Shown here: positions 1,819 through 10,710 of the stretch, piece by piece
How the letters are laid out: every line of letters starts with the position of its first letter
Numbering within the stretch: the first letter of the stretch is position 1
NCBI GenBank assembly: GCA_012511375.1
Contig: JAAZGF010000017.1
Span: forward strand, 1-28,956
DNA from: Candidatus Dojkabacteria bacterium
GTDB lineage: Bacteria; Patescibacteriota; Dojkabacteria; SC72
Length of the DNA stretch: 28,956 nt
Direction: 5' to 3'
The notes under the pieces: generated by a model
What the model was told of the DNA's origin: nothing
Seen by the model: only the letters and a program-made list of their open reading frames with translations
Database searches by the model: none
Made by a program: the position numbers and the translations under genes

Positions 1819-2661
1819 ATGAGACAGCATGCGATTCCTCACAATATATTAGATATAGAGTTTAAAATTTTTACAAAATTTACTCTAAAAGAATTTGCTT
1901 ATCTAGCAATTGGGATTGGTTTTGGAGCATTAATGATTTACTTAACAGCAAGAGGAGACGTTCCTGGTATTATTGGAATCCCTGTTTTTATCTTTTCCTC
2001 TATCTTAGGAATTATTTTAGGACTAGTACCTATCAACGAACAAGATGCAGATGTATTTATTAAAAACTTTATCACTGCTATAACTAATCCTACTCAGAGA
2101 GTTTGGTTAAACAAAGAAATGAATGATAAGAGGTCAAAACCAGAGATAAAACCAACAAAAGAAGGAGAAATAGTACACAAAGACGTTAAGATAAAAAGAA
2201 AGAAAATAATTGGAGCAACCTTACCTTCTCAGAAAAAGGATGATGATATTGCAGATCCCTTAGATGAGAAAAATTTACAAGTAGATCAGGAATTACTTGA
2301 ATCAAATATCAAAACAGTATCAGCAATTACTCCTAACAAGATAATAATAACAGATGAAAACAGGAGTGCTTATCAATTCCAGATAAAGAGTACTGATAAA
2401 TTACCTGGAAATATTAATATTTGGTTATGTACAAAAGAATTTAAACCCGTTCCCAATGTAGTTACATATCTTAAATCTTCCAATGGAACAGTGTTGTATG
2501 CAAATAAAGCTGGAAAGAATGGATACTTTCTTACAAGTAAGTTATGGGATCCTGGAATATATGTGTTAGAATTTGATCACCCTGTATACAAATTCCCTGA
2601 AGTACAGATAGAATTAACAGAGAAGGAGAACAAATTACCTATTAAAATAAGTAGTTTATAG
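1819..2661 (+). CDS. prgI: PrgI-family membrane protein (T4SS VirB3-like) with a C-terminal beta-sandwich domain
   Basis: N-terminus MRQHAIPHNILDIEFKIFTKFTLKEF followed by two TM helices and PINEQDADVFIKNF. The C-terminal domain resembles a carboxypeptidase-regulatory/Ig-like fold. It lies directly upstream of the TraC-like gene and virB4. Confidence 0.8.
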   Translation: MRQHAIPHNILDIEFKIFTKFTLKEFAYLAIGIGFGALMIYLTARGDVPGIIGIPVFIFSSILGIILGLVPINEQDADVFIKNFITAITNPTQRVWLNKEMNDKRSKPEIKPTKEGEIVHKDVKIKRKKIIGATLPSQKKDDDIADPLDEKNLQVDQELLESNIKTVSAITPNKIIITDENRSAYQFQIKSTDKLPGNINIWLCTKEFKPVPNVVTYLKSSNGTVLYANKAGKNGYFLTSKLWDPGIYVLEFDHPVYKFPEVQIELTEKENKLPIKISSL

Positions 2662-2662
2662 A

Positions 2663-3298
2663 ATGGATAAAAAAGCAAGAGCAAGAGCAACAGCATCAAC
2701 TCAAGAGCATCTCTCTGTAAGAGAGGTGATGGATGACTTAATACTTAATAAAAACGGAAGTGTTGCTATGGTAATACAAACATCCTCTATAAACTTTGAT
2801 TTATTAGCAGAGTATGAACAAGATAATAAAATATATGCCTTTGCGGGACTACTTAACTCTTTGAATTTTAGGATTCAAATCCTTATAAGAACACGTAGGA
2901 TTGATATTACTAATTATGTAGATTATCTCAAATCTCAGAAGAATAAGGCGATGAGTGAAGGCTTAAAAAGACAACTAGAAATCTACACTCAATTTATAGG
3001 TACACTCATATCTGAAAATGATGTTCTAGATAAAAGTTTCTTTTTGATAATACCATATAGCCCTGGAGTTCCATTACCTGGAACTAGTATATTGGATGCA
3101 AAGAAAAACAAAGAAGAGAGAGATAAATATAAAGATATGAAAAAAGAACAACTTGTAGAAAAAGCAAAGATGTACCTCTATCCTAAGCGAGATCATCTTC
3201 TCAAGCTATTAGGAAGAATGGGGTTGTTTGGTCATCAATTAACAAACAAAGAGTTAATTTCAGAATTCTATACATTATATAATCCAGAAGAGGAGTAA
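2663..3298 (+). CDS. TraC/TcpE-like VirB4-associated protein (resembles the N-terminal region of conjugative ATPases)
   Basis: STQEHLSVREVMDDLILNKNG...SSINFDLL..EQ...FAGLLNSLNFRIQILIRTRRIDI. It starts 1 nt after the prgI stop and ends 4 nt before virB4. Confidence 0.7.
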   Translation: MDKKARARATASTQEHLSVREVMDDLILNKNGSVAMVIQTSSINFDLLAEYEQDNKIYAFAGLLNSLNFRIQILIRTRRIDITNYVDYLKSQKNKAMSEGLKRQLEIYTQFIGTLISENDVLDKSFFLIIPYSPGVPLPGTSILDAKKNKEERDKYKDMKKEQLVEKAKMYLYPKRDHLLKLLGRMGLFGHQLTNKELISEFYTLYNPEEE

Positions 3299-3302
3299 AA
3301 TC

Positions 3303-5717
3303 ATGAATGAAAGAGATCAAAGTAGAACATATCAAAGTAAAGCCTCAAAGATGTTGGAAGATAGGGCTGAAAAAATTAAATCTCCTGCGGAAAAAACTTC
3401 TGAGTTCCAAGAATTGCTTAAAAAAGATGAAACAAGAAGAGATTCTTTTGATAGAAGATATGACGAACCAAAACCTATTGAAAAAGAAGATAAAAATCCA
3501 ATATTTAAATTGCTGGATAAATTAAGAAAGAATTATGAAAAGAAACAGAAAGATGAAGATGAAAAAGAACCTTCTACAAGAGAGGAAGAAGAAAACAGAG
3601 ATCTAAAAGAGAATCTTCCCACAGATATGTCTATTCAGGACATAATAGCTCCTATTGATCTAGAAGTAGACTTCAATCATCTCCAAATGGGAGATTACTA
3701 TTTTAAAACACTATTCATTAGTGGTTATCCTAGATTTGTAGGACCAAACTGGCTATCACCTATTATCAATTTTGAGCACTCTCTTAGAATTAGTACTTTT
3801 TACTACCCTGTTGAATCAAAAGTTATTTTAGAAAAGCTAAAAAAGAAAATAGGAGAGATGGAAGCTACTCTTTACACACAAATGGAGGAAAGGAAAGTTG
3901 TAGATCCTTCCCTTAAAGTAGCTCTGTCTGATGCTCAACAATTACAAGACTCAATAGCAGAAGGAACAGAAAAGTTTTTCCATTTCTCTATGTATATAAC
4001 CCTATATGCTAATGATAAAGAGGAACTAGAAAGAATAGGAAGAAATGTAACCTCTACCCTAGCTGCTATTAATGTCTCTGCTAAACCCGCTACATTACAA
4101 CAAGAGCAAGGCTTTATTAGTACACAACCATTGGGCTTGGACAATCTTTACATAACACGAAATATGGATACTACTTCTCTTGCAACTACATTTCCGTTTG
4201 TAACATCAGAATTAACAATGGATCATGGAATTATGTATGGTATAAACCTTCATAACAAGAGTTTGGTTATATTCGATAGATTTGATTTAGAAAATGCTAA
4301 TACTGTTATTTTTGCAAAATCTGGTGCTGGAAAAAGCTATTTCGTCAAATTAGAAGCAGTTAGAAGTTTAATGCTTGGAACTGAAATAATAATAATAGAT
4401 CCTGAAAGTGAATATCAAAGTTTATCAAAGGCAGTAAATGGAGCATACATCTCTTTCTCACAGGATAAAGGAAACAAGATGAATCCGTTTGAACTCTCGG
4501 GAGTAACAGATGAAGGAGATGATGAATTAAGAATGAAGTTATTAGCTCTTCAGGGATTCTTCAAAATAATGTTTGATGGAATAACAAACATTGAAGGTTC
4601 TATACTAGATAGAGCTCTAATTTTAACATACAGAGAAAAAGGAATTAACTTTGATCCTAGCACTCAAACAAATCCTCCTCCGATGCTAGAAGATCTTTAC
4701 AAAGTTCTAAAAGGAATGGCAGAGACAGAGGCTCATGCATTGGCCAAGAGACTAGAAAAATATATTATTGGTAGTGGTGCTGGTGTATTCAATGAGGCAA
4801 GTAACTTTGAAATAGTTAATCCATTTACAGTCTTTAGTATTAGAGATTTACAAGAAGAACTGAAACCTATGGCCATGTACCTAATGCTTGATTTTATATG
4901 GACTAGAATTAGAAAAAATAAAAAAAGAAGATTGCTCATAGTAGATGAGGCTTGGTATATGATGCAGTCAGAAGATTCAGCAAAATTTCTTTACTCTATT
5001 GCTAAAAGAGCAAGAAAGTATTACCTAGGCCTCTCTACTATAACACAAGATGTTGCAGACTTTCTTAATACAGATATGGGGAAAGCTATAATTTCAAACT
5101 CCTCTATACAATTACTTATGATGCAAAGTCCAACTGCTGTAGAAAAGCTTCAAGAGGTATTTAAACTCTCTGATGGAGAAAAGAATTTTCTACTTAGCTG
5201 CGAACAAGGACAGGGACTATTCTTTGCAGGAACAAATCATGTTGGTATACATGTGCTCTCTAGTGTCTCAGAACATGAGTTAATAACCTCAGATCCTAGA
5301 GACTTGGAAAGGATGAAGAAGAGAGAAGGAGAAACAGATACAAGAACGATAGAAGAACTCTCGCAAGTTTATGAGACTCCTGCAGAACAGAGAACCGTAC
5401 AAAGAACCGTAAACATAACCAGGCAGGAACAAATAATAGAGGATGCTATTAAAAAGACAGAGGATCGAAGAGGCATCTTACAGCAAGAGAGAAGTCAATA
5501 CCAAAAAGAATTAGAGGAAAGACTTAAACAAAAGGAGGAGGAATTATATCCTGAGAAAATGAACCTTCAAAAAACATATAAAGATCATCTTGAAGAAAGT
5601 ACTCTCTCTGGACAAATAATAAAATCTAGAGAAAATATACAGAAAGGTAGAAAACATTTAACACCACAAGGGACTGTAGAAAGCTATCCCTCAAAAGATA
5701 ATAACCCATATGAATAA
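3303..5717 (+). CDS. virB4: VirB4/TraC-like type IV secretion ATPase
   Basis: Walker A AKSGAGKS, IIIDPESEY, Walker B LLIVDEAWY, KRARKY, TITQDVADF, GQGLFFAG, and RNMDTTSLATTFPF. Confidence 0.92.
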   Translation: MNERDQSRTYQSKASKMLEDRAEKIKSPAEKTSEFQELLKKDETRRDSFDRRYDEPKPIEKEDKNPIFKLLDKLRKNYEKKQKDEDEKEPSTREEEENRDLKENLPTDMSIQDIIAPIDLEVDFNHLQMGDYYFKTLFISGYPRFVGPNWLSPIINFEHSLRISTFYYPVESKVILEKLKKKIGEMEATLYTQMEERKVVDPSLKVALSDAQQLQDSIAEGTEKFFHFSMYITLYANDKEELERIGRNVTSTLAAINVSAKPATLQQEQGFISTQPLGLDNLYITRNMDTTSLATTFPFVTSELTMDHGIMYGINLHNKSLVIFDRFDLENANTVIFAKSGAGKSYFVKLEAVRSLMLGTEIIIIDPESEYQSLSKAVNGAYISFSQDKGNKMNPFELSGVTDEGDDELRMKLLALQGFFKIMFDGITNIEGSILDRALILTYREKGINFDPSTQTNPPPMLEDLYKVLKGMAETEAHALAKRLEKYIIGSGAGVFNEASNFEIVNPFTVFSIRDLQEELKPMAMYLMLDFIWTRIRKNKKRRLLIVDEAWYMMQSEDSAKFLYSIAKRARKYYLGLSTITQDVADFLNTDMGKAIISNSSIQLLMMQSPTAVEKLQEVFKLSDGEKNFLLSCEQGQGLFFAGTNHVGIHVLSSVSEHELITSDPRDLERMKKREGETDTRTIEELSQVYETPAEQRTVQRTVNITRQEQIIEDAIKKTEDRRGILQQERSQYQKELEERLKQKEEELYPEKMNLQKTYKDHLEESTLSGQIIKSRENIQKGRKHLTPQGTVESYPSKDNNPYE

Positions 5718-5931
5718 TAAGCAAAATCTAAATATATCTAACTACCTTGTAACAGAGGCTATTGATCCTAAAACAATCCTTCCTGATAAAGTGAATTCAG
5801 ATTTGGAAGCCTTAAATAAGGCTGAAAGTAAAAGCACATATAAAACAAACATTGCAAGAAGTATAAAAAACCCTAAAGTACAAAGAGCTGTCTCTGCATT
5901 AAAATTAAGCAATCCATTCAAAGGATACTAA
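5710..5931 (+). CDS. Small hypothetical protein (73 aa) coupled to virB4
   Basis: The ATG overlaps the virB4 3' end by 8 nt and the stop overlaps the convergent Lon-like stop. The ORF fills the gap exactly. Confidence 0.55.
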   Translation: MNNKQNLNISNYLVTEAIDPKTILPDKVNSDLEALNKAESKSTYKTNIARSIKNPKVQRAVSALKLSNPFKGY

Positions 5932-7118
5932 CTCAGTGGACCTTGATCAGCAAGAACATACTCTCTCAAATTAGAACTATCTATTACAATTGGAAGTCTT
6001 TCTCCTTCTATTATCTTTCTTGCTGCACTTCTAACTATTGTAGTTATATTTCTCTCCAACTGCCTTATACCTGCATCAAAGCCTACCGGTCTAATAATTA
6101 AGGGCCATACATCTTCCTGTATCTGAATATATTCTGTTGATATGTTTAAATTCTTTAATACTTTAGGAAGGAGATACTGTTTCCCTATAACTTCCTTCTC
6201 CTGATCTGAATAACTCGTAAATCTAATAACTTCAACACGGTCAAGTAGAGCAGCAGATAATCCTCCTAGGTTATTTGCTGTACAAACAAAAAACACATTA
6301 GATAAATCAATAGGATAATCAATATAGTGATCTGTAAAAGCATGATTCTGTTCCGGATCTAATATCTCTAGAAGAGCTGCCATAACATCATTCAAAAGAC
6401 CCGAATTCCCACTAGATTTCTCTATTTCATCAAGAAGTATAACTGGATTCATAGTACCACAGTTAATTAAAGCCTTAACAATCTGCCCTGGTTCTGCATC
6501 TATAGAGTATCTTGGAGTACCTCTTATAGTTCTAACGTCCCCTATCGCTCCCAAAGAGACTCTTGCAAACTTTCTTCCCATTGAAATAGCTATGGACTTT
6601 GCAATAGAAGTTTTTCCAACACCTTGTAAACCAACAAAAAGAAAAACTGGAGCATTCGAAGATGACCCTTTTAATACCCCTATCTCTTGAATTCTGTTAA
6701 TTTCTCCATTAGAAGAAATAGGAACTTGACTAGGAAGGTTTCTACCCCTAACCCCACCCTCGCTTTCTAGCTGCATTGTTGCTAAGTAATCTAGAATTAA
6801 CTCTTTTATCACATCCATCCCATAATGCGTTCCATCCATTATTTTTTTAGCATTACTTATATCCAATCGATCTTCAGATAACACCCCCCAAGGAATTCTT
6901 GTAACCCAATCTATATACTTATTAACATTTTCAAACTCAGCACTGTATGCCCCCATTTGAAACATCCTTTTAAGTCTATTTATACTTCTCATACTTTCTT
7001 CCTTCAAAGCATCTGGAACTCTGGATGAAACAAGCTTGTTTTCGAGCTGTAAAACCTCTTTTAAGCCTTCATCCGTTACTATATTAGTATTGTTTCTATT
7101 TTGATTAGAATAATCCAT
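5928..7118 (-). CDS. lon: Lon-like AAA+ ATPase lacking the N-terminal domain and the Ser-Lys protease domain
   Basis: YIDWVTRIPW, THYGMDVIKELILDYL, Walker A GLQGVGKTS, Walker B ILLDEIEK, ALLEILDPEQNHAFTDHY, DLSNVFFVCTAN, LLDRVEVI, GIRQLER. The protein ends at SNLREYV, where the protease domain would begin. Confidence 0.88.
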   Translation of the reverse strand: MDYSNQNRNNTNIVTDEGLKEVLQLENKLVSSRVPDALKEESMRSINRLKRMFQMGAYSAEFENVNKYIDWVTRIPWGVLSEDRLDISNAKKIMDGTHYGMDVIKELILDYLATMQLESEGGVRGRNLPSQVPISSNGEINRIQEIGVLKGSSSNAPVFLFVGLQGVGKTSIAKSIAISMGRKFARVSLGAIGDVRTIRGTPRYSIDAEPGQIVKALINCGTMNPVILLDEIEKSSGNSGLLNDVMAALLEILDPEQNHAFTDHYIDYPIDLSNVFFVCTANNLGGLSAALLDRVEVIRFTSYSDQEKEVIGKQYLLPKVLKNLNISTEYIQIQEDVWPLIIRPVGFDAGIRQLERNITTIVRSAARKIIEGERLPIVIDSSNLREYVLADQGPLS

Positions 7119-7138: not shown

Positions 7139-7184
7139 TCTAAAGTGTATATTTACAAATTGATTAAGTCAACTATTAAAAGTA

Positions 7185-7245: not shown

Positions 7246-8520
7246 ATGAAAAAATTATATGTATTTTTCGCTTTTTTGTTTACCTTTTTACTTCCACTTT
7301 CTGCAATGGCAGCTGTAAATATTGCCTTAGATGATACATCTTCTAGCGAAGAATATAGTGTTTCCGTTTCCATTGATACGGGGATCGAAATGCTTGATAC
7401 TCTTGTTCTCCCAATAGAATTTTCTGACAATGTTGTAATCACAGATGTGCTTACAGGTAGTGTAATTTGTAGCAAGTTTGACTTTGTAGAAAATAATAAT
7501 ATTTTAACTATAACTTGTGAATTAGATACCCCATCATCCTTAAATGCTGTTTTAGCAAATATAGAATTTACATCTACTTCTGATGAGTATTCCTTTAAAG
7601 TTTTAGATGATAATTCTAGTTTAGATATAGGAGGTTTAGGTTTAGGGGCAATTACTAATATAGGTTCAACAGAAACTACTACTAACAGAATAGCAACAGA
7701 AGAGATTGATGCTATCCCTATAAATGAAGAAACTGAGGATGATTTTCTTGTAACATCTGACCAACCAGTAGAGGAAACAGCTTCTAGTACAGAAGGAATT
7801 ATGACTTTCCTGCCGTATATTTTAATAGGAGGATCAGTTGTTCTTTTGATTACCATCTTAGCTATTATATTCAGCAAGAAAGGAACATCAAAGAAGTCTG
7901 AATATATTCCTGTCGAAAATCCAACTCCTCAAGACAGTACTGTTCCTGTACAAAATGAAGAAAACACTTTAAAAGACATGGTTAATAATACTGCTACTCC
8001 TATTGAAGAGACACCTATACCTACTCCACCTGTACAAGATACTCCTGCTCCTGTTATGCCTACAATACAAGAGACACCAGCTCCTACTATGCCTCCAATG
8101 GAAGAGATTCCAATAAGTTCTGAACCTCTACAACAAGCACAACCAACAACAGAGGAACAAGATTTAGAGGAGATATTGAGAAGTGAAAATAGTACTCCTG
8201 TAGAACCAATGGGAATGCCTTCAAATACTCCTCCAGTACAACCAATGGATCAACCTGTTATCCATCCTGAAGCAATGCAACCTCAAACAATGGAGACAGT
8301 AGATGTTTCCTCACAACCACAACCATCTCCTGAAGATATGTTGTCTAATAATGTCGCAAGGGAATTAAATCAAATGCAAGATACAGGTAGTGGAATTGAT
8401 TTACAAGGGGGAATGCAAGAACCAGTTGAACCGCAGCCCACACAAGGATTTGATACTCCACAAGGAGGAGAAGTTGACCAACAAGAAGAGAGTATGCCCC
8501 CCATACCACCAACTATGTAG
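7246..8520 (+). CDS. Single-pass surface protein: signal peptide, cohesin-like beta-sandwich, TM helix, Pro/Gln/Thr/Glu-rich disordered tail
   Basis: Signal peptide MKKLYVFFAFLFTFLLPLSAMA, a beta-rich domain (YSVSVSIDTG...LANIEF), TM ILIGGSVVLLITILAIIF followed by KK, then a low-complexity C-terminus. The cohesin fold is inferred. Confidence 0.7.
   Translation: MKKLYVFFAFLFTFLLPLSAMAAVNIALDDTSSSEEYSVSVSIDTGIEMLDTLVLPIEFSDNVVITDVLTGSVICSKFDFVENNNILTITCELDTPSSLNAVLANIEFTSTSDEYSFKVLDDNSSLDIGGLGLGAITNIGSTETTTNRIATEEIDAIPINEETEDDFLVTSDQPVEETASSTEGIMTFLPYILIGGSVVLLITILAIIFSKKGTSKKSEYIPVENPTPQDSTVPVQNEENTLKDMVNNTATPIEETPIPTPPVQDTPAPVMPTIQETPAPTMPPMEEIPISSEPLQQAQPTTEEQDLEEILRSENSTPVEPMGMPSNTPPVQPMDQPVIHPEAMQPQTMETVDVSSQPQPSPEDMLSNNVARELNQMQDTGSGIDLQGGMQEPVEPQPTQGFDTPQGGEVDQQEESMPPIPPTM
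8002..8097 (+). repeat. Imperfect in-frame tandem repeat (30/33/33 bp; IEETPIPTPP / VQDTPAPVMPT / IQETPAPTMPP)
   Basis: gtacaagatactcctgctcctgttatgcctaca (8032-8064) versus atacaagagacaccagctcctactatgcctcca (8065-8097). Confidence 0.6.
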
Positions 8521-9114: not shown

Positions 9115-10710
9115 TTAACCCCTATCTACAAATTGATGTTTATCATCTATTTTAGGCTCTATGATTTTCTTTAAAAGAGGAACCCATATCGAATCCATAT
9201 ATGTTAAGCTCCTTAACCATTCATATACTAATTTCCTGTAAGATATGTGCCCACCATTCCTAGTTCTTAGATTAACCACATACTGTAAATCATCAAAAGA
9301 ACCGTAATATATATATCTTGTATTGTGAGCATAAGGAAGCATATATTTCGTAAACTCATCACAAACTTCTTTAGATACTACTTCTTTGGCCATTTCTCTC
9401 CACCCCCTAATTTGGGTATAGGTGTCTTCTAATCTACTCTCATACTCTTTCCTTAGTTTAGAAAATACAGGAATTTCTAGATAATTACATAAGTAATAGC
9501 ATTGATCATTTCTCCTCCCTAACTCCTGATCCATATCTATCTGATCATGTAGTAGAGGCATAAACCTCTCCATACTCCTATGCCTATTTAAATCTTTTAG
9601 AGTACCTAAGGATGCAAAACCTTCTATCTTAATTGCCCCTGACTGCCCAATATTGCCTAATTGATTGTGATGATCATGCTTATCAAATATTATCTCCCCT
9701 ATCTTCTCTTGATCACTCTCTGAGAATTCAAATTCTCTTTTTGAGCCCAAAGGATTTATCAAAGCCTCATAATGAGAGAGTAATGCCTCCATACAGTCAG
9801 GTGAATATGATATTTTTATAGCCTCTTGTTCACTTTCAGGAAGATTTGTAATCTGTTCTTTAGAAAGCTCTTTCTCTAACAAAGAAATTATCTCTTTGGT
9901 AGAATCCCTTCTACAACAATTTGGATCAGTATGCCTTATTAACCCATCCGCTTCTTTAATGTATCCTCTCACATCTAAATTAGAATCTCCCAATATATTT
10001 AACAACATATTGGATATCTCATTATCTGCAACAGAATCACTTGCACACATAAAGCTAATTCGTTCAGACCATGCCCTAGCTGACATTAGAAAAGCAGAAC
10101 TTGAATTATGTCCATAAGGAAGTAAGTATCTAGCAGTATCAAATGCTCTAGCAGTTAAAGCAGAATTTTCCTGTGCACTATCTTCGTTTATTTTAAAAAA
10201 CTTTTTTAATTGTTCTTTTGTTGGTTTAAGTAGCTCCTTGTAATCTTTGAACTGTTTAAGCATTATCCTCTCATATTCTTTACTTACCTCTCTATCATTA
10301 CAAACCTCCTTTGGAATTTTGATAAATTCAGGATATTGAAAATCTTGAAACCTGGTAGACCTTTCTTGTCCTGATATCACGGGCGATGAATAGAAGATTT
10401 TCATTACTACTGCCATTGGGATATTCTCTATACACACAAAAAGATCTGCCATATCTCCTACCGATTTATGTCCATACCCTGCGAATATCTTTTCTAATCT
10501 TTCTGCTGCATCCGTATTGTTTTTAATAATCTCAGATGCAATATCTACTATGGAATCTGCAGATCTACTGTATCTTGCCCCTAGATATGCATTAATAGAA
10601 GGCTGTTTAGATTCACAGTTCTGCAAGAGAGTATGGACTTTGAAATTATTCCACTCAGACTCTGCTCTTAAGGATGCTATGTGCAAATCTTTCCTGAAAC
10701 TTAATTTCAT
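9115..10710 (-). CDS. thyX: Tandem-domain FAD-dependent thymidylate synthase ThyX
   Basis: YGHKSVGD, SGQERSTRF, FDTARYLLP, and a second domain with DLNRHR and GGHISYR. It is 531 aa, about twice the size of a single-domain ThyX. Confidence 0.87.
   Translation of the reverse strand: MKLSFRKDLHIASLRAESEWNNFKVHTLLQNCESKQPSINAYLGARYSRSADSIVDIASEIIKNNTDAAERLEKIFAGYGHKSVGDMADLFVCIENIPMAVVMKIFYSSPVISGQERSTRFQDFQYPEFIKIPKEVCNDREVSKEYERIMLKQFKDYKELLKPTKEQLKKFFKINEDSAQENSALTARAFDTARYLLPYGHNSSSAFLMSARAWSERISFMCASDSVADNEISNMLLNILGDSNLDVRGYIKEADGLIRHTDPNCCRRDSTKEIISLLEKELSKEQITNLPESEQEAIKISYSPDCMEALLSHYEALINPLGSKREFEFSESDQEKIGEIIFDKHDHHNQLGNIGQSGAIKIEGFASLGTLKDLNRHRSMERFMPLLHDQIDMDQELGRRNDQCYYLCNYLEIPVFSKLRKEYESRLEDTYTQIRGWREMAKEVVSKEVCDEFTKYMLPYAHNTRYIYYGSFDDLQYVVNLRTRNGGHISYRKLVYEWLRSLTYMDSIWVPLLKKIIEPKIDDKHQFVDRG

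Follow-up and report, generated by a model that had tools for sequence, protein, structure and literature searches.

A short, protease-less Lon-type ATPase of Candidatus Dojkabacteria belongs to an old paralogue of LonA found across the candidate phyla radiation

The window analysed here is a 28,956-nt stretch of a Candidatus Dojkabacteria genome (GenBank assembly GCA_012511375.1, contig JAAZGF010000017.1), and the gene of interest, on its minus strand between positions 5928 and 7118, codes for a short Lon-type AAA+ ATPase, hereafter the short Lon. Few ATP-dependent proteases have been studied as much as Lon, the ATPase and protease parts of which are normally fused in one chain. A first-pass annotation made from the sequence had described the gene as a Lon without protease and N-terminal domains, and had proposed for its product a role of repurposed unfoldase or remodeller. 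We found that the short Lon belongs to a paralogue of LonA that is old, monophyletic and spread over the candidate phyla radiation (CPR), and the members of which consist only of a helical bundle, the AAA+ domain that follows it and a Lon-type lid. The ATPase residues are invariant within this clade and the residues with which LonA holds its substrates are not, which suggests an ATP-driven function other than the threading and degradation of proteins.

The gene is a single uninterrupted open frame of 396 codons. Its parts are given below in window coordinates.

5928..7118, minus strand: short Lon-type AAA+ ATPase, complete coding sequence (396 aa, 44 kDa, isoelectric point 5.3)
7089..7118, minus strand: N-terminal tail, aa 1-10; low model confidence, length and composition vary across the clade
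6762..7088, minus strand: helical bundle before the AAA+ domain, aa 11-119; equivalent to LonA ~240-340, i.e. the end of the long helix and the three-helix bundle
6654..6761, minus strand: insertion between the bundle and strand beta-1, aa 120-155; low model confidence, hypervariable length, dN/dS (ratio of nonsynonymous to synonymous substitution rates) 0.35
6216..6653, minus strand: AAA+ large (alpha/beta) subdomain, aa 156-301
6609-6632, minus strand: Walker A, GLQGVGKT, aa 163-170
6486..6524, minus strand: pore loop 1, aa 199-211, RGTPRYSIDAEPG; the LonA signature H-R-R-T-Y-[IV]-G is gone
6426-6443, minus strand: Walker B, VILLDE, aa 226-231
6387..6419, minus strand: pore loop 2 region, aa 234-244; the LonA aromatic-R-G-D-P is gone and the loop is two residues longer
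within 6270-6284, minus strand: sensor 1, CTANN, N282
within 6231-6248, minus strand: Arg finger, LLDR, R294
5949..6215, minus strand: Lon-type lid (alpha) subdomain, aa 302-390, with sensor 2 R352
6051-6083, minus strand: [LV]-G-[FYW]-D-A-G-I-R segment before sensor 2, specific to the clade
5931..5948, minus strand: C-terminal tail DQGPLS, aa 391-396; last four residues of low model confidence

On this protein Pfam detected an AAA domain (PF00004, residues 160-301, 1.8e-18) and a Lon lid (Lon_lid, PF22667, residues 325-373, 5.7e-09), and no other domain. The lon model TIGR00763 was matched with 329.8 bits over its positions 255-567 of 795 only, which is below its curated whole-protein cut-off of 608 bits. 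The top PDB matches were all LonA chains (B. subtilis 3m6a, E 1.5e-73; Meiothermus 7fd4; E. coli 6u5z; human LONP1), aligned over their own residues ~240-580. When aligned to the E. coli gene, against which the E. coli numbering used throughout was checked (K362, Y398 and S679), the short Lon is collinear with Lon ~240-585: it starts at about residue 229-240 and stops in the linker between the AAA and protease domains, at about residue 585-590, that is, as the first-pass annotation had it, where the protease domain should begin. The S16 protease domain with its Ser-Lys dyad (Pfam Lon_C, PF05362) had no match in the protein, and the N-terminal LAN substrate-binding domain (PF02190) had none in the protein or in the rest of its genome. 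The description as a Lon devoid of both domains was therefore correct.

The AlphaFold2 model (70 homologues) had a mean predicted local distance difference test (pLDDT) score of 82.5 and a predicted template modelling (pTM) score of 0.78, the low-confidence parts being residues 1-10, 121-158 and the last four only. With Foldseek, the template modelling (TM) scores to LonA and LONP1 chains were 0.70-0.79 when normalised to the query, and a score of 0.89, normalised to the target, was obtained with 6n2i ('Lon protease AAA+ domain'). The latter, of 338 residues, has nearly the same span and fold; it is however a laboratory truncation of a protease, whereas the short Lon is a natural and selected stand-alone gene with a rebuilt pore.

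We determined how the short form is distributed among 201 genomes, namely that of the window and 200 other Patescibacteria genomes sampled evenly (E <= 1e-30; counts tallied by hand). Short frames (~350-450 aa) were present in 48 genomes, the window's own included, and full-length Lon frames (~620-1080 aa) in 43; roughly two thirds of the 201 had neither class at this threshold. Full-length LonA was also present in 25 of the 48 sampled genomes with the short form. A maximum-likelihood tree was built from 33 short and 42 full-length sequences on the module common to both (335 columns). All the short sequences were on one side of a single branch of length ~0.6 with a Shimodaira-Hasegawa-like approximate likelihood ratio test (SH-aLRT) value of 100; the query was nested within a Dojkabacteria subclade of the short sequences, and the CPR full-length LonAs were placed within the rest of the full-length set.

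The same dichotomy was recovered at 79 independent loci when species-representative genomes were scanned: 38 were short, 41 were full-length and none was intermediate. The 38 short loci all ended 224-234 residues past Walker A, had a GL[QVAP]G Walker A (GVQG for two of them) and a degenerate pore loop, and this set of traits (length, Walker A, pore loop 1) was found at none of the 41 full-length loci, where GPPG (GAPG once) and RGHRRTY[IV]G were seen instead. Over the whole clade, Walker A is GL[QVAP]G, rarely GVQG or GIQG, and pore loop 1 is [LI]RG-x-x-[RK]-x-x-x-[DE]-[AS]-E-P-G. The query follows the short-clade pattern, ending 234 residues past a GLQG Walker A and having RGTPRYSIDAEPG as pore loop 1. 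The first-pass annotation was thus right about the altered pore loop and the GLQG Walker A, but these are traits of the CPR-wide paralogue and not peculiarities of this gene.

Records of the short type were named WWE3, Shapiro-, Ames-, Roizman-, Davies- and Woesebacteria, or 'Patescibacteria group'. Two others (L090 and L109), titled 'uncultured Gammaproteobacteria' and 'Candidatus Methanoperedens', contained a CPR-type rpsO-pnp-short Lon-udg-rnj block and are probably mislabelled. A few damaged copies were also seen: a 140-aa short-Lon fragment adjoined rnj (G097:C1:555265-555669) in a genome that also has a full-length LonA, and matches with in-frame stops were present in three other genomes (G059:C1:33307-34053, G211:C22:6240-6950 and G110:C87:3700-4434). 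These may be decaying copies in lineages which keep full-length Lon. Protease-less Lon-like ATPases may also exist outside the CPR: the ESM Atlas lists clusters of ~390-410-aa AAA plus Lon_lid proteins for Nucleocytoviricota (giant viruses), and of 345-397-aa AAA proteins for Bacillota and Dormibacterota. A full-text literature search for protease-less Lon in CPR or Dojkabacteria found no description of it, and the family is apparently undescribed. NCBI annotates its members as 'AAA family ATPase' and JGI as 'ATP-dependent Lon protease', the second of these names being wrong for the short Lon.

Over the span that they share (bundle, AAA+ domain with its pre-sensor-1 hairpin, Lon-type lid), the short Lon and LonA (endopeptidase La, MEROPS S16, TIGR00763) are 37-45% identical. 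K362, T363, D423, E424, N473, R484 and R542, i.e. the Walker A Lys and Thr, the Walker B Asp-Glu, the sensor 1 Asn, the trans-acting Arg finger and the sensor 2 Arg, were invariant in the 33 short sequences, and the query has them all. Every residue required for ATP binding and hydrolysis is therefore kept, the trans-acting finger included; the earlier claim of intact Walker A, Walker B, sensor 1 and Arg finger motifs holds for the entire clade. The pre-sensor-1 hairpin is retained as well, together with Y294 and W297 of the bundle (Y68 and W71 in the query).

The short Lon differs from LonA by the missing PUA-like LAN domain and protease domain, and also in the pore: it is in pore loops 1 and 2 that the positions fixed in LonA but free in the short clade are clustered. 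The first of these loops reads RGTPRYSIDAEPG in the query and RGHRRTYIGSMPG in E. coli. The LonA signature of this loop, H394-R-R-T-Y398-[IV]-G400, was found in 40-42 of the 42 full-length sequences (T397 and Y398 in all of them) and is not conserved in the short clade, where position 398 is variable (S8, H6, E4, Q3, F3 and others among the 33 sequences; Ser in the query). Acidic residues have been gained, with D or E at position 400 in 26 of 33 and E at position 402 in 29 of 33. In pore loop 2, the aromatic residue at 432, G434 and P436 are lost, and this loop, like the first, has become acidic and variable. Among 120 Dojkabacteria homologues, Walker A was GLQGVGKT in all, and pore loop 1 appeared as TPRYSID, SPRYSPD, TPRHEID, TPKQVID and other variants. 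A further replacement precedes sensor 2, where Y-T-R-E-A-G-V-R of LonA has become [LV]-G-[FYW]-D-A-G-I-R. In LonA, Y398 and I399 grip the substrate, and the I399A change impairs degradation with little effect on ATP hydrolysis (PMC7239648). Processive threading by the short Lon is doubtful because its clade no longer conserves these grip residues. The term 'unfoldase' used in the first-pass annotation is consequently not retained, Y398/I399 and the aromatic-R-G-D-P of pore loop 2 being precisely what the whole clade has stopped conserving; 'remodeller' seems a reasonable guess.

The gene is intact and under strong purifying selection. Of 41 relatives, ranging from the same genus to the same order, 40 have an orthologue in an open frame of 380-440 aa with 56-85% identity. 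Pairwise dN/dS among 12 genus-level orthologues was ~0.08 overall, 0.046 for the AAA module and 0.35 for the insertion; these values are rough, dS being close to saturation, yet far below 1. A protein of identical sequence is encoded on dozens of contigs, the longest of 706 kb, and near-identical DNA was present in at least 20 metagenome runs (sludge, bioreactor, digester) from several studies. No relative had a full-length Lon at this locus and selection was not relaxed, so that the gene is, as initially supposed, not a decayed one. Contigs of four RNA libraries covered it at >=99% identity and their depth fell to zero in the upstream spacer, which would fit a transcribed gene, although DNA carry-over may also account for them.

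On its 3' side the gene overlaps by 4 nt the end of a convergent 73-aa open reading frame (ORF), after which comes VirB4, and therefore there is no room for a protease domain; on the 5' side a 127-nt spacer separates it from a divergent gene. Nor was a protease domain found elsewhere, in agreement with the first reading of the window: a Lon_C search of the genome (588 kb in 115 contigs, 92.9% complete) gave no match, and no proteasome or HslV-type subunit was found in it. In 40 relatives, the same search returned only weak matches at profile positions ~90-170, mostly in ~450-aa frames, and two of these frames, when scanned, both turned out to be RadA/Sms. The possibility of a separately encoded Lon protease domain was rejected on these grounds, and the short Lon is the sole Lon-type gene found in Dojkabacteria. 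Weak Lon_C matches in two order-level relatives (G037:C18:2611-3003 and G039:C17:23420-23677) lie in frames of 541 and 654 aa, which are not RadA-sized.

Two further elements distinguish the short Lon. The segment joining the bundle to beta-1 has 66 residues in the query against 33 in E. coli Lon, i.e. an insertion of ~33-35 aa, close to the 35 aa first estimated; the insertion is nevertheless a family trait, since nearly all members of the short clade have extra residues at this site. The segment ranges from 34 to 169 residues across the clade; in E. coli Lon, as in most CPR LonAs, it has 33. Within the insertion, 87 of the 120 Dojkabacteria homologues have a mini-motif, [ILMV]-P-[ST]-Q-[IVM] (here LPSQV, nt 6723-6737). 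The second element is the C-terminal tail: 115 of these 120 proteins end in DQGPLS, and the other five in DQGTLS or DQGPMS. Class-level relatives have related tails (EDIGVYS, EQIGIVS, LDIGVFS), and most other CPR members end about six residues sooner, with [FY]-L-P plus one or two residues, often a final Trp or Tyr. A DQGPLS-like ending was found in no other ORF of the genome. An invariant and flexible C-terminus, on the face where LonA has its protease, may be a docking or regulatory peptide.

From these features we propose, with a probability of about 0.6, that the short Lon is a non-threading, non-proteolytic, ATP-driven remodeller or chaperone-like switch. It would assemble into a Lon-like ring, as suggested by the conserved trans-acting Arg finger, and this ring would burn ATP. 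With an acidic pore that is not conserved, and with no chamber for degradation, the ring would most likely neither thread nor degrade proteins; clients would instead be remodelled at the expense of ATP. The variable N-terminal tail and the insertion could contact clients or partners at the entry face, and the invariant DQGPLS tail could do so at the face that bears the protease in LonA. Several points weigh against this proposal. Its oligomerisation and ATPase activity, as well as its lack of threading, are deduced from sequence. Protease domains stabilise LonA hexamers, and without them the short Lon could assemble in another way or require a partner. Most Dojkabacteria keep a Tyr one position before the canonical site (R-Y-S-I-D), so that some gripping of substrates may persist. 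Lastly, the invariance of the tail hints at a partner that the proposal does not name.

A partner could come from the genes next to which the short Lon is usually found. In CPR bacteria other than Dojkabacteria the usual order, all on one strand, is nusA-infB-(DHH-like)-rpsO-pnp-[short Lon]-(udg)-rnj-ftsK; this block was seen at 18 CPR loci outside the order to which the window belongs, with gaps from -4 to ~120 nt. In the sampled non-Dojkabacteria genomes carrying the short form, rnj was at most 2.5 kb away in 25 of 37. An independent sample of 36 loci from WWE3, Shapiro-, Ames-, Davies- and Woesebacteria had rnj downstream in 19, pnp upstream in 17 and udg in 22, and in two families with a disrupted block the short Lon has remained with udg-rnj. 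This arrangement would fit an accessory ATPase of RNA decay or processing, acting with PNPase and/or RNase J much as degradosome helicases do. We consider this rather unlikely for the following reasons. PNPase and RNase J are nearly ubiquitous in the CPR sample (196 and 197 of 201 genomes), and many of the genomes without short Lon also have the two genes on one strand, separated by 0.3-5 kb; therefore the short Lon occupies a slot in an old conserved backbone, the adjacency may be historical, and as evidence of function it is weak. The block also includes unrelated genes (udg, ftsK), and acidic pore loops are unfavourable for RNA binding. In complete Dojkabacteria genomes, finally, the short Lon is ~28 kb from pnp and ~48 kb from rnj.

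The short Lon is thus relocated in Dojkabacteria, where the order is folD-glyA-thyX-dcd-(variable gene)-short Lon, convergent with small ORF-virB4-traC-like-prgI, at 15 of 15 loci. No neighbour is conserved family-wide as a candidate partner, the neighbours being dcd and virB4 in Dojkabacteria and pnp, udg and rnj elsewhere, and no protease domain was found in the extra genes of the pnp-rnj block. To a more speculative scheme we give the same low credence as to the role in RNA decay. The short Lon would be the dedicated ATPase subunit of a CPR-specific machine with an unrecognised partner: PNPase and RNase J in most CPR, forming an AAA+-driven complex for RNA decay or ribosome turnover, or, in Dojkabacteria, a partner docked through DQGPLS, by analogy with proteasomal ATPases, which dock by C-terminal motifs. 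If so, a textbook protease motor would have been re-used non-proteolytically in organisms that lack ClpX and often Lon.

A less probable partner is a separate peptidase, ClpP or other, for which the short Lon would be the unfoldase, docking through its C-terminal tail or the [LV]-G-[FYW] tripeptide. The genome does have ClpP (tig-clpP, C87:12761-14417) without the usual clpX-lon continuation, and a search for ClpX in the assembly, which is 92.9% complete, gave no match; the flexible tail is located where LonA has its protease, and a hydrophobic-Gly-aromatic tripeptide before sensor 2 is specific to the clade. However, the genome codes for two Hsp100-type ATPases, one of which (835 aa) is of the ClpC type and has an LGF tripeptide at residue 688, where the ClpP-docking loop is expected, and ClpP is therefore probably already partnered. 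ClpX was found in only 3 of 201 CPR genomes, independently of short-Lon presence, so that its absence does not single out the short Lon. The unfoldases that dock on ClpP (ClpX, ClpA, ClpC) have an [ILV]-G-[FL] tripeptide in a long and flexible loop that faces the peptidase. In the AlphaFold2 model, the tripeptide of the query (V-G-F, aa 345-347) forms a short lid turn beside sensor 2 and the nucleotide site, not a long protruding loop. The pore loops, furthermore, have no conserved grip, and there is no peptidase gene among the conserved neighbours. As to other proteases and their ATPases, the FtsH protease domain (PF01434) was not found in the assembly of the window's genome, where it could be in a contig gap, and in at least two of the three ClpX-bearing CPR genomes (1.4-2.0 Mb) clpX is beside a full-length lon.

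The arrangement conserved at the 15 Dojkabacteria-type loci could also suggest an accessory ATPase of the neighbouring type IV secretion system (T4SS)-like module (PrgI, TraC-like, VirB4), which we regard as very improbable: the genes are convergent and hence not co-transcribed, the arrangement is limited to one order and is explained by shared descent, and there is no VirB4 near the class-level and more distant homologues. Nothing specific was found in favour of a defence-system or phage origin, PADLOC giving generic AAA matches only (DolB, 36.5 bits; PDC-M37B, 21 bits) and no defence-specific model such as BrxL. A protein which is only the middle third of LonA and scores under the TIGR00763 cut-off might be suspected to come from a lon gene in decay or truncated not long ago, or from an assembly error, but this is refuted by the same boundaries in 40 of 41 relatives and in other sampled CPR lineages, by the dN/dS of 0.08, by the single deep clade, by flanking genes that leave no space for the lost domains and by independent assembly in at least 20 runs.

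Among known ring ATPases, ClpB/Hsp104 disaggregases and ClpX without ClpP are likewise able to act without a peptidase; they keep conserved aromatic pore loops and thread their substrates, whereas the short Lon does not conserve such loops and resembles them in sequence only over the generic AAA+ core. LonC proteins are Lon-like proteases with a degenerate ATPase, which have kept the protease and lost ATPase activity. The short Lon would be their mirror image, each having given up one of the two activities of Lon. What is remarkable in it is that strong selection has maintained the Lon motor alone over a very long period, throughout a large radiation of bacteria with minimal genomes; this amounts to a natural experiment on a Lon motor without proteolysis and without the canonical substrate grip. 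The identity of its clients would fill a gap in CPR proteostasis, or possibly in RNA metabolism. The pnp-rnj backbone control, the count of coexisting LonA, the DQGPLS tail, the [LV]-G-[FYW] replacement and the relocation in Dojkabacteria are new here.

Upstream of the gene, one promoter-like site was noted:

7144..7172, minus strand: candidate promoter-like site TTGACT-17 nt-TACACT, 26 nt upstream of the ATG

Sites of this kind were no more numerous in the region than in a shuffled control, and no terminator was predicted at the locus. One RNA-library contig terminates at 7169, near this candidate site.

The neighbouring genes call for a few remarks. The convergent 73-aa ORF (5710-5931, plus strand) has no Pfam match and is the last gene of the prgI/traC-like/virB4 operon; it is kept in position, with 41-69% identity, in all 15 Dojkabacteria-type loci with virB4. 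The T4SS-like module itself (1819-5717, plus strand) is made of tightly packed genes for a PrgI-family protein, a 211-aa TraC-like protein and an 804-aa VirB4/TraG-P-loop ATPase, and is flanked by housekeeping genes. On the other side, the divergent gene (7246-8520, plus strand) codes for a protein of 424 aa whose N-terminus is hydrophobic; there is another hydrophobic stretch further inside, and the long tail is rich in Pro, Gln and Thr. Pfam gave nothing for this protein, its identity within the genus is only 31-48%, and in one family-level relative the slot of the gene is occupied by a class-V aminotransferase gene. Further on, the ThyX homologue (9115-10710, minus strand) is, with 531 aa and two Thy1 stretches, about twice the usual size, and has the same length of 531 aa in two relatives.

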